From: an uncultured Actinomycetes bacterium
GTDB lineage: Bacteria > Actinomycetota > UBA4738 > HRBIN12
Direction: 5' to 3'
DNA: 64,000 nucleotides
Assembly: GCA_963704725.1 (NCBI GenBank)
Contig: OY969934.1
Coordinates: 1,280,001 to 1,344,000 of the forward strand
The number at the start of each line of letters is the position of its first letter. The stretch's first letter is position 1. Position numbers and translations under genes: made by a program. Below the pieces are notes generated by a model, which ran no database searches, was not told the DNA's origin, and saw only the letters and a list, made by a program, of their open reading frames with translations. Positions 61,998 through 63,874 of this stretch are shown here, one piece after another.

Positions 61998-62615
61998 TCA
62001 CTCGGTGCCGAAGAGCCGGTCCCCGAAGTCGCCGAGGCCGGGCAGGATGTACCCGTGATCGTTCAGCTGACGATCCACGGCGGCCGTGTAGATCGGCACG
62101 TCGGGGTGATCGGCCTGCATCTTCTCGATCCCCTCGGGGGCGGAGACCACGCAGACGAACCGGATCGAGGCCGGCTCGCCGAGCTTCACGGCGGCGGTCG
62201 CGGCCGAGCCGGACCCGCCGGTCGCCAGCATCGGGTCGAGCACGAGCACGTGACGGCCCTTCACCGGGGGCAGCTTCCGGTAGTAGGACTGTGGCTGGAG
62301 CGAGGCCTCGTCGCGCTCGAGCCCGATGTACCCGACGGCCACCTCGGGAAGGAGCTCGGTCACGGCCTCGAGCATCCCGAGCCCTGCCCGCAGGATCGGG
62401 ACGGCCACGAGGTCTCCCAGCACCCGGCCGGTCGCCGGCTCGAGCGGCGTCGCCACGCCGATCTCCGAGGTCGGCAGGTCCCGGATGGCCTCGGCCGCGA
62501 GCACGAGGGCGAGGCGCTTGGCGAGGGTTCGGAACACCGGCGGTGGGGTTCGGGCGTCCCGGAGCTGGGTCAGCAGATGCGCCGCCAGCGCGTGGTCGAC
62601 GAGCGTGACCGACAT
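61998..62615 (-). CDS. upp: Uracil phosphoribosyltransferase
   Basis: PILRAGLGM, LDPMLATGGS, YILPGLGDFGDRLFGT; TAGGAT -10 element 7 nt upstream. Confidence 0.96.
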   Translation of the reverse strand: MSVTLVDHALAAHLLTQLRDARTPPPVFRTLAKRLALVLAAEAIRDLPTSEIGVATPLEPATGRVLGDLVAVPILRAGLGMLEAVTELLPEVAVGYIGLERDEASLQPQSYYRKLPPVKGRHVLVLDPMLATGGSGSAATAAVKLGEPASIRFVCVVSAPEGIEKMQADHPDVPIYTAAVDRQLNDHGYILPGLGDFGDRLFGTE

Positions 62616-62662
62616 CGGGCGCATCCTAATGCGGCGCCGGGCGCCCCGCGTCCGGCCGGGGG

Positions 62663-62691
62663 TTGCCATGCGGAGCGCGTGCTGGCACGAT
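62663..62691 (+). promoter_or_regulatory. Sigma70-type promoter for the aroF leader
   Basis: TTGCCA (62663-62668) - 17 nt - CACGAT (62686-62691), 9 nt before the leader ATG. Confidence 0.6.
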
Positions 62692-62700
62692 GGCGCTTCG

Positions 62701-62754
62701 ATGCACGCGTACTTCGGCTTCGGGTCCTTCTACTTCGGGCGCCGCCCGGGGTAG
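62701..62754 (+). CDS. Phe/Tyr-rich attenuator leader peptide MHAYFGFGSFYFGRRPG
   Basis: 17 codons with 4 Phe and 2 Tyr, upstream of a DAHP synthase; overlaps the attenuator segments. Confidence 0.85.
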   Translation: MHAYFGFGSFYFGRRPG

Positions 62755-62810
62755 TCGCCTGAGGCGACCGATCAGACGACCCCGGGCGAGGAGCCCGGGG
62801 TTTTCCGTCT
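62731..62810 (+). terminator. Attenuator with mutually exclusive 1:2, 2:3 (antiterminator) and 3:4 (terminator) hairpins
   Basis: Terminator accccgggc-gagga-gcccggggt followed by ttt; antiterminator cgcccggggt (62743-62752) with accccgggcg (62779-62788). Confidence 0.85.
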
Positions 62811-62842
62811 CCGGGGCGCGGGCCGGGAACGGAGGGATCCCC

Positions 62843-63874
62843 ATGGTCGTGGTGATGAAGCGGGAGGCCACCGAGGCCGACGTCGAGGCGATCGCCGAGC
62901 GCGTTCGGGCCTCCGGGGGCGAGGCGTTCGTGTCGCGCGGGACGGTGCACACGGTCATCGGGCTGGTCGGCGACACCGAAGCGTTCGAGGCGGTCGACTG
63001 GCAGCTCATGCCGGGCGTCGAACGGGTGATCCCGATCGGCAAGCCCTACAAGATGGTCGCGGCCGACCTGCACCCCCAGCCGACCACCGTGAACGTCGGG
63101 ACCACGCCGGTCGGGCGGAGCACCTTCACCATCATCGCCGGGCCCTGCGCCGTCGAGAGCGAGGAGCAGGCCCTGATCGCGACGAAGGCCGCGAAGGCCG
63201 CCGGCGCGACGATCCTTCGAGGCGACGTCTACAAGCCGAGGACGTCGCCCTATTCGTTCCAGGGGATGGGGGAGCGAGGGATCGAGATCCTGCGGGAGTG
63301 CCGGCGGCAGACGGGCCTGCCGATCGTCGTCGAGGTCGTCGACGCCTCGCACGTGGAGCAGGTGGCCGAGGTCGCGGACTGCATCCGCGTCGGGACGCGC
63401 AACGCCCAGAACTTCGAGCTGCTGAAGGAGGTCGGCCTCGTCCGCAAGCCGGTGATGCTGAAGCGCGGGCTCGCCATGACGATCGACGAGTGGCTGCAGG
63501 CGGCCGAGTACGTGGCCCAGCGGGGGAACTCCGACATCATCCTGTGCGAGCGGGGCATCCGGACGTTCGAGCCGTCGACGCGCAACACGCTGGACCTCGC
63601 GGGGATGGCCGTGGCGCAGGCCGAGTCCCACCTACCGGTGATCGTCGATCCCTCTCACGCGGTCGGGAAGCGACACCTCGTCGCGCCGATGGCGCGAGCC
63701 GCCGTGGCCGCCGGGGCCGACGCCGTGATGATCGACGTGCATCCCGACCCCGAGACCGCCTACTGCGACGGCCCCCAGGCGCTCACGCCCGACCAGATGC
63801 TCGATCTCGGCCGGGACCTCGAACGGCTGGCGGCGGCGATCGGCCGCACGCTCAACCGGCCCGACTCGAAGTAG
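62843..63874 (+). CDS. aroF: Type I-beta DAHP synthase with N-terminal ACT/ferredoxin-like regulatory domain
   Basis: MVVVMK...IGLVGD N-domain, IAGPCAVES, KPRTSPYSFQG, LKRG, CERGIRTFE, VDPSH, DGPQAL; GGAGG SD. Confidence 0.95.
   Translation: MVVVMKREATEADVEAIAERVRASGGEAFVSRGTVHTVIGLVGDTEAFEAVDWQLMPGVERVIPIGKPYKMVAADLHPQPTTVNVGTTPVGRSTFTIIAGPCAVESEEQALIATKAAKAAGATILRGDVYKPRTSPYSFQGMGERGIEILRECRRQTGLPIVVEVVDASHVEQVAEVADCIRVGTRNAQNFELLKEVGLVRKPVMLKRGLAMTIDEWLQAAEYVAQRGNSDIILCERGIRTFEPSTRNTLDLAGMAVAQAESHLPVIVDPSHAVGKRHLVAPMARAAVAAGADAVMIDVHPDPETAYCDGPQALTPDQMLDLGRDLERLAAAIGRTLNRPDSK

Follow-up and report, generated by a model that had tools for sequence, protein, structure and literature searches.

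In an uncultured Actinomycetes bacterium (GenBank assembly GCA_963704725.1), the gene for a type I-beta 3-deoxy-D-arabino-heptulosonate 7-phosphate (DAHP) synthase, aroF, is preceded by a compact leader that is very probably a classical ribosome-mediated (leader-peptide) transcription attenuator of that gene. Both lie near the end of the 64,000-nucleotide (nt) stretch analysed here (contig OY969934.1, positions 1,280,001 to 1,344,000), which as a whole we call the window and whose numbering we use. The element is a real, strongly conserved feature, and it combines a short upstream open reading frame (ORF) rich in codons for amino acids of the pathway, an antiterminator that shares a strand with a predicted terminator, and a pairing of segments 1 and 2 (1:2) that reaches into the last codons of the ORF, where the position of a ribosome would decide the fold. 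A stalling attenuator for phenylalanine (Phe) and tyrosine (Tyr) before an N-terminally regulated type I-beta enzyme had been proposed from the letters of this DNA alone, and comparative evidence supports that core reading.

The leader ORF, MHAYFGFGSFYFGRRPG, carries TTC at codons 5, 7, 10 and 12 and TAC at codons 4 and 11, with Phe or Tyr at 6 of its 17 codons and TGG absent (Table 1). Inspection of the sequence found no Shine-Dalgarno motif ahead of its ATG, and the messenger RNA (mRNA), with a transcription start predicted from the placement of the promoter, is probably leaderless or near-leaderless. Across an alignment of 28 relatives (A1), T8, T9, G10 and C12 of the -35-like box are invariant and C11 and A13 nearly so, while the -10-like box has an invariant A at hexamer position 2 and an invariant AT at positions 5-6. 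A generic promoter and terminator scan of the leader region gave 0 calls, because its consensus rules misfit this promoter and the short uridine run (U-run) that follows the last stem. The promoter boxes, the 17-codon ORF, the codon counts and the three overlapping pairings of the original prediction were all confirmed in the sequence, as was its perfect 10-base-pair (bp) pairing of segments 2 and 3 (2:3); only segment 2, first placed at 62744-62753, needed a shift of one base in the 5′ direction for that pairing, to 62743-62752 with 62779-62788. Folded alone, the 1:2 helix has 11 bp (62730-62740 with 62744-62754, -16.8 kcal/mol) and includes codons 11-13 and the stop, and the predicted terminator formed by segments 3 and 4 (3:4) has 9 bp at -20.7 kcal/mol, with UUUU behind the stem. 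The antiterminator, consisting of 2:3 and an apical extension, folds alone at -30.1 kcal/mol, and it forms in 26 of 28 isolated folds.

Table 1 Coordinates of the aroF leader and its gene in the window
Feature	Position	Strand	Remarks
-35-like box TTGCCA	62663..62668	+	Read from sequence
-10-like box CACGAT	62686..62691	+	17-nt spacer from the -35-like box; 9 nt 5′ of the leader ATG
Leader ORF, MHAYFGFGSFYFGRRPG	62701..62754	+	17 codons + TAG; ATG at 62701, TAG at 62752-62754
Segment 1, CUACUUCGGGC	62730..62740	+	From the third base of codon 10 to the first base of codon 14
Segment 2	62743..62754	+	Final codons and TAG stop; partner is segment 1 or segment 3
Spacer hairpin	62754..62778	+	Apical part of the antiterminator; GUCGCC/GGCGAC, or GUCG.CUGA/UCAG.CGAC, in per-sequence folds; inner stem 62754-62759 with 62763-62768
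Segment 3, ACCCCGGGCG	62779..62788	+	Partner is segment 2 (antiterminator) or segment 4 (terminator)
Segment 4, GCCCGGGGU, with U-run UUUU	62793..62804	+	3′ arm of the terminator (62793-62801) and tail (62801-62804)
Segment 5, CUCCGGGGC	62809..62817	+	Complementary to segment 4
Shine-Dalgarno GGAGGG of the DAHP synthase gene	62831..62836	+	6 nt 5′ of its ATG
DAHP synthase, type I-beta, N-terminal regulatory-type domain	62843..63874	+	343 aa (amino acids); NCBIfam NF006421, PDB matches

Evidence that the leader is more than a chance arrangement comes from its conservation rather than from fold energy, since the fold of the whole leader is only modestly stable by itself (z = -2.37; 1 of 200 shuffles equally stable). 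A protein search of 40 relatives returned 30 DAHP synthase loci, all 30 of which have an ATG-started, Phe/Tyr-rich ORF of 17-20 codons that ends 78-140 nt 5′ of the gene. Two of these loci (L002 and L030) belong to unpublished genomes and were left out of the alignment and of later sequence analyses; unpublished genomes contribute in part to the tallies of 30 loci, of 151 genomes (six such), of the phylum model scan and of 301 genomes. In the remaining 28 sequences, drawn from 6 families, the promoter boxes, ORF, TAG, spacer hairpin, CCCCGGGC/GCCCGGGG hairpin and pyrimidine-rich tail align. Among 151 genomes sampled from the class, which all belong to one order, 125 were matched by a covariance model of the terminator-state structure built from these 28 relatives (R1). 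By family, matches were found in 108/115 genomes of f1, 6/6 of f6, 3/3 of f2, 2/2 of f3, 1/1 of f5, 4/13 of f8 (weak) and 0/10 of f7. At the loci examined, strong matches always lie just 5′ of the DAHP synthase orthologue, and the 85 strong matches reduce to 78 distinct sequences, all of which also carry the Phe/Tyr-rich micro-ORF. Public records of close relatives are all metagenome-assembled genomes of uncultured Actinomycetota or 'Actinomycetes'. As a genome control, 2489 ORFs of 12-25 codons, each read from its first ATG, were scanned, and only 3 contain at least 6 aromatic residues; the scan skips the leader itself, which has in-frame ATGs upstream.

The distinct copies also show a coding signal. 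The frame is intact in 78/78; ATG occupies the aligned place in 77 of them, the remaining copy having an ATG further 5′, and the stop is TAG in 77 and TAA in 1. Lengths are 17 codons in 65 copies, 16 in 9, 18 in 3 and 20 in 1. Aromatic residues make up 31.5% of all residues in the 78 leaders (Phe 19.0%, Tyr 8.3%, tryptophan (Trp) 4.2%). Phe occurs in 78 copies, Tyr in 77 and Trp in 56, so the 'dual Phe+Tyr' sensing first put forward describes the window copy and is too narrow for the family. Position-by-position counts in the 64 ATG-started 17-codon leaders place the most conserved aromatic codons at 8-11: codon 9 is aromatic in 59/64 (TTC 41, TTT 11, a synonymous change that retains Phe), codon 11 in 59/64 (Tyr 55) and codon 8 in 42/64 (Trp 41), and codons 4, 5, 7 and 10 are aromatic in 38-42 of 64 each. 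By a geometric argument, codons 8-11 sit where a stalled ribosome would cover segment 1 and free segment 2. The intact frame, the kept ATG, the exchange of TTC and TTT, and a promoter 9 nt from the ATG lend indirect support to translation of the leader ORF. Sensing of Phe and Tyr, and of Trp in most relatives, would best explain its aromatic codons.

At the 3′ end of the ORF, conservation has a different character. At codon 15 the leaders have NGC or GAC (Gly 24, Asp 14, Ser 13, Arg 8, Cys 5; n=64), at codon 16 all 64 have CCG, and at codon 13 GGG is found in 57; the residues of the final codons vary while the bases stay, which argues that constraint acts here on nucleotides and not on residues. 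The stop is fixed as TAG because GUAG pairs with CUAC of the Tyr-11 codon. These patterns bear on the idea that the ORF encodes a functional micropeptide, or that the RNA binds a protein or ligand, with the aromatic codons not serving as sensors. Strong conservation of the ORF and the nearly fixed G6, G13 and P16 favour this idea; however, the C-terminal conservation is at the nucleotide level with residues 14-15 varying widely, aromatic identity is retained while F, Y and W interchange, the controlled gene makes the precursor of exactly these amino acids, a Trp-rich sister leader stands before trpE, and the RNA matches no Rfam family. We regard it as extremely unlikely.

Pairing in the 78 sequences follows both alternative structures, in counts that use an alignment fitted to R1 and hence lean towards the model. 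The 1:2 helix is 87.5% paired and includes a compensatory pair, 43-59 (GC 51, UG 15, UA 2, CG 1, other 9). The two apical helices are paired in 79-84% and 55% of cells, and each of their 7 pairs has changes in both strands; the terminator stem is 97.1% paired and almost invariant. The terminator-state structure as a whole is 84.5% paired (81.3% in shuffles) with a covariation score of 0.085 against 0.051 in shuffles, a value reached by 0 of 500 shuffles, and slid controls give 0.010-0.057. The antiterminator structure is 77.9% paired (74.4% in shuffles) and scores 0.093 against 0.056, again reached by 0 of 500 shuffles, with slid controls lower. Position 62787, where the CCCCGGGC core of segment 3 ends, covaries with its partners in segment 2 and in segment 4 alike: the seg2/seg3/seg4 triple is G/C/G in 45 sequences, A/U/A in 8, G/C/A in 14, A/C/G in 4, G/U/G in 2, A/U/G in 1 and others in 4, which matches what alternate pairing of segment 3 predicts.

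In the scheme that we infer from this anatomy, the conserved promoter would yield an mRNA whose 5′ end lies at the leader AUG or no more than a few bases from it. With charged Phe and Tyr transfer RNAs (tRNAs) plentiful, the ribosome would reach the UAG and cover segment 2, because UAG lies inside that segment; 3:4 would then form and RNA polymerase would terminate at the U-rich tail (about 62801-62806). If the ORF were not translated, 1:2 plus 3:4 would form and would lead to termination too. When charged tRNA runs short, the ribosome would stall at aromatic codons just 5′ of or inside segment 1, at codons 10-12 (F-Y-F) in the window copy and at codons 8-11 (W-F-F-Y) in most relatives. A ribosome footprint reaches about 12 nt past the A-site codon, as assumed in this geometry, and the stalled ribosome would mask segment 1 but not segment 2, which could then pair with segment 3 once that is made, giving a long antiterminator with the apical extension that would block the terminator, so that the gene is transcribed.

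The tail behind the 3:4 stem has the composition expected under this scheme. Its first 8 nt hold a mean of 4.59 T (n=78; 3 T in 4 copies, 4 in 26, 5 in 40, 6 in 7 and 0 in 1), in a genome of 71.3% G+C and about 14% T. A motif of the form CCCCGGG-N3-12-CCCGGGG occurs at 7 sites in the genome, and a T-rich tail follows it only at the aroF leader and at a sister leader before trpE. In one relative (G005; L146, G005:C5:155574-155672), a CCCCGGG...CCCGGGG hairpin with a pyrimidine-rich tail stands right after the stop of an ordinary gene, a site by which the module appears to serve also as a plain terminator in this lineage. Taken together, the tails confined to aroF and trpE, the sister Trp leader and the G005 site lead us to read the hairpin as the lineage's terminator and the device as a modular attenuator.

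Several observations weigh against the attenuator or are left unexplained by it. The U-run is short and interrupted, with 4 U in the window copy and a tail that starts with C in some relatives. At equilibrium the antiterminator (-30.1 kcal/mol) about ties with the terminator plus spacer hairpin (about -30 kcal/mol); in an equilibrium stall scan of the window copy, the terminator probability drops only for stalls at codons 7-9, and stalls at codons 10-12 leave it at 0.97-1.00 (family median at least 0.86). Since the two states differ little in energy and the choice between them is kinetic, we dropped the stall scan as a test, and because equilibrium folding fails to separate the states, the attenuator model depends on the kinetics of folding during transcription. 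Aromatic codons 4, 5 and 7 are too far 5′ to free segment 2 by simple geometry. Codon 8 is NGG in nearly all leaders (TGG 41, CGG 12, GGG 8, GGT 2, TTC 1; n=64), and Trp there may partly reflect nucleotide constraint. The terminator and the antiterminator core are near-invariant, which makes most pairs uninformative either way. The three covarying columns change at least 6, 5 and 8 times on a quickly built tree of the DAHP synthases, which has 77 rows because one of the 78 proteins was too short. Only 2 independent contrasts fall on supported branches, so the tree-aware test is without power and no tree-aware significance can be claimed; the partner base never moved oppositely. Transcripts were sought in 4 soil or rhizosphere metatranscriptome contig sets (0.05 share of sampled words each, compared at 85% likeness); the contigs found come from relatives and cover parts of the coding region only, none spanning 62560-62831.

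Natural variants add to these points. Two relatives of different genera, G042 (L160) and G057 (L144), keep the promoter and hairpin and have lost the ORF and segments 1-2; a strong terminator would silence the gene in such ORF-less copies. A third, G053 (L164), belongs to the small-genome genus g33, in which R1 matches 0/3 genomes; it lacks the attenuator, and the same promoter stands immediately 5′ of its gene. This case either counts against the attenuator or is left unexplained by it, and the same holds for a duplex of segments 4 and 5 (4:5). Family-wide, this duplex has a mean of -14.7 kcal/mol against -10.3 in shuffles, with 43/79 at p <= 0.05. Segment 5 lies after the U-run and cannot affect termination.

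In a rival reading, attenuation would act on translation, instead of or atop termination: a stall would re-fold the leader (2:3, 4:5) and free the DAHP synthase Shine-Dalgarno, with 3:4 a weak terminator at best. The conserved segment 5 beyond the U-run, its complementarity to segment 4, the retained hairpins of G042 and G057 and the weak U-run all favour this mechanism, and computed Shine-Dalgarno accessibility runs in its favour (stalled 0.44, free 0.38, ribosome at stop 0.35; predicted direction in 55 and 57 of 79), although the effect is small and the sequences are kin. There is a precedent in mycobacteria, where leaderless poly-Cys short ORFs are described as un-sequestering a ribosome-binding site (10.1101/834739). 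Against it stand the conserved T-rich tail straight after a 9-bp G+C stem, which is a requirement of a terminator, and the 4:5 duplex of the window copy, which does not rise above shuffles (-13.8 vs -11.8 kcal/mol, p = 0.165). A pairing of the tail with the Shine-Dalgarno, striking in single folds, was rejected beyond what base composition gives, as it is no better than that of shuffled tails (mean z 0.03; 2/74 at p <= 0.05). We consider control at the level of translation unlikely.

Rho-dependent attenuation is a known mechanism, and polarity dependent on Rho or on coupling would have the leader ribosome release at UAG and expose the RNA to Rho, the hairpins only modulating the outcome. It comes into view solely since a U-run as short and broken as this one may terminate weakly by itself. 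Spacer and tail form G+C-rich structure rather than an unstructured, C-rich loading site, and intrinsic attenuation would need no more than the conserved T-rich tail and the three conserved, mutually exclusive helices. We judge a Rho-based mechanism very improbable, and return to ribosome-mediated transcription attenuation as our preferred account.

The controlled enzyme scores 456 bits (cut-off 335) with the NCBIfam model NF006421 (3-deoxy-7-phosphoheptulonate synthase), and its residues 1-337, including the N-terminal domain, align with PDB entries 1rzm/3pg9, 1vr6 and 4grs (E about 1e-100), which we take to be the Tyr/Phe-inhibited Thermotoga-type enzyme. Upstream, on the opposite strand, lies the uracil phosphoribosyltransferase gene (upp); its divergent orientation rules out that the hairpin is the terminator of this neighbour. 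Profile searches of the 3.45-Mb genome found neither a type II (PF01474) nor a type I-alpha (TIGR00034) DAHP synthase. They found a second I-beta enzyme of 270 aa (368.9 bits), a bare catalytic barrel whose gene lacks this leader, from which it follows that the leader controls the regulated isozyme and not all entry to the pathway. The earlier statement that it gates entry to the shikimate pathway was therefore too strong.

The locus of the second enzyme (L230, G000:C1:2831500-2836500, outside the window) adjoins a divergent 545-aa paralogue that falls below the cut-off. A Trp-rich mini-ORF about 300 nt 5′ of the second enzyme, MTMWAWPAWVP, is conserved in 0/4 relatives and is probably there by chance; in two of these four relatives (L232, L234) a conserved non-coding stretch lies just before the paralogue. 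A 16-codon Trp/Phe-rich frame, MLWAFRFSWTWLFAKL, occurs at two further sites outside the window (G000:C1, about 902118 on the minus strand and 1652097 on the plus strand), probably inside a repeated element.

The sister leader before trpE lies outside the window in the same genome (G000:C1:2292410-2292543, plus strand; L032 1501-1634) and consists of a promoter-like TTGACG-N17-CGACCAT, the frame MTERAHRWSWRRGV and the same CCCCGGGC/CCCGGGG hairpin, again tailed by a T-rich stretch; a Shine-Dalgarno and then a trpE-like gene follow. In G014 (L142), G078 (L143) and G127 (L147), weak R1 matches likewise mark Trp leaders ahead of trpE. Across the phylum, DAHP synthase orthologues were found at E <= 1e-60 in 199 of 301 sampled genomes, and R1 gave 13 weak matches outside the order, in f16 (7/10), f18 (4/10), f24 (1/2) and f31 (1/5). 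Upstream regions were inspected in about 40 further families, at one to nine loci each. Aromatic leaders were seen in f18 (8/8 loci and two further loci, of the type MQRYYWFFG..., MQRYYWFFGTSGRPGAEAV), f16 (2/3 loci and L153, of the type MKT.NGWYFFFGAF..., MKTNNGWYFFFGAF...), f15 (2 or 3 of 4 loci), f11 (1/1, MKVWVGQRFWFYAPGRPAG...) and f40 (1/1, MRARNFFFGFWYWFGGSPAD...). None was seen in most of the other inspected families; among these are f7 and f8, which belong to the order of the window's genome and in which another gene precedes that of the enzyme.

Alongside these counts, loci in other families of the phylum (L153-L155, L170-L179, L181-L188) have related aromatic leaders that share the hairpin and stand ahead of the same enzyme, and a different type of ORF, with aromatics at its C-terminus (...[YW]WRF[ST]-stop), is found at 4/4 loci of f35 and f46 (L221-L224). 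Beyond the phylum, aromatic-rich ORFs precede I-beta DAHP synthases at L112, L117, L134, L137 and perhaps L119 (e.g., MFTLYFWWYYFVPHRG, MGIFYFGYYYWFFGPVGPGRVRRTRQ), loci L112, L117, L134, L137 and L119 being labelled Proteobacteria, Desulfomonilaceae, Longimicrobiales, Syntrophobacterales and Clostridiaceae.

A wider scenario, which we put forward tentatively and hold to be doubtful as a whole, would make the element an old modular attenuator of deep-branching, mostly uncultured Actinomycetota. Its leaderless ORF would read all three aromatic amino acids and choose between 1:2 + 3:4 and 2:3 + 4:5, segment 5 would couple read-through to translation of DAHP synthase, the terminator module would have been re-used with a Trp leader at trpE, and the leaders in at least five further families would share one ancestor.

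The RNA family, with members in about 120 sampled genomes of one order and relatives in other families of the phylum, is uncatalogued. An Rfam cmscan of 62300-63200 at E <= 10 gave chance-level, unrelated matches only, the best being SorX at 20.6 bits against a gathering threshold of 46.6, and since the 17-codon ORF escapes gene callers and Rfam lacks this family, a model of it would aid annotation. For uncultured soil Actinomycetota, the element would place the committed aromatic step under tRNA-charging control atop likely allostery through the N-terminal domain. The ORF-deleted copies and those without an attenuator are natural variants for tests of mechanism. Our understanding of attenuation itself is unchanged by the element.

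The closest textbook counterparts are pheL-pheA (Rfam Phe_leader, presumably RF01859) and trpL-trpEDCBA (Trp_leader, RF00513) of E. coli, which likewise have a short ORF of regulatory codons and alternative 1:2, 2:3 and 3:4 helices before a biosynthetic gene, with an intrinsic terminator where the window leader has a predicted one. In contrast to them, the window leader is compact and (near-)leaderless without a Shine-Dalgarno, has its stop inside segment 2, and belongs to a family that mixes two or three aromatics and acts on the first step, common to the whole pathway, instead of on one of the terminal branches. Among leaderless sensors, the poly-Cys short ORFs of mycobacteria reported by Canestrari et al. 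2020 (bioRxiv 10.1101/834739) share with it the phylum and, in our scheme, a stalled ribosome that re-folds downstream RNA; they are reported to regulate translation via the ribosome-binding site, whereas the hairpin and T-rich tail in the window point to transcription termination. The trpE leader attenuators of Actinobacteria surveyed by Seliverstov et al. 2005 (PMC1262725) resemble the sister element, with its Trp leader, shared hairpin module and T-rich tail. That survey reports that no conserved RNA structures were found upstream of Phe/Tyr genes in the Actinobacteria available in 2005, a gap that the window element fills for other, mostly uncultured lineages.

Within the phylum, the original prediction knew of no comparable case, a claim that is refuted by the aroR-aroF attenuator of Corynebacterium glutamicum: Mentz et al. 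2013 (PMC4046766) describe an attenuator at aroF with a Phe-Tyr-Phe leader, and a review (PMC11802643) summarizes Neshat et al. 2014 as showing that aroR encodes the leader and that transcription of the operon rises under Phe limitation, Tyr availability being without effect. Phylum, logic and the DAHP synthase step are shared, as is F-Y-F, found at codons 10-12 of the window leader. However, C. glutamicum has TIGR00034 (aroFGH, I-alpha) and PF01474 (type II) enzymes and no TIGR01361 (I-beta), the reverse of this genome, so its leader does not stand upstream of an orthologous DAHP synthase gene, and most members of the window element's family add Trp. The difference in enzyme class indicates that the two devices are analogous and probably not homologous. 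In the literature collection searched, no description of this element was found, and the papers there on leader-peptide attenuation of DAHP synthase concern mostly E. coli or C. glutamicum; none was seen to name this lineage. Set beside these systems, the mechanism is ordinary and precedents of its kind are known in the phylum; the novelty lies in the RNA family itself, the class of its target enzyme, its (near-)leaderless compact build and its breadth among uncultured Actinomycetota.

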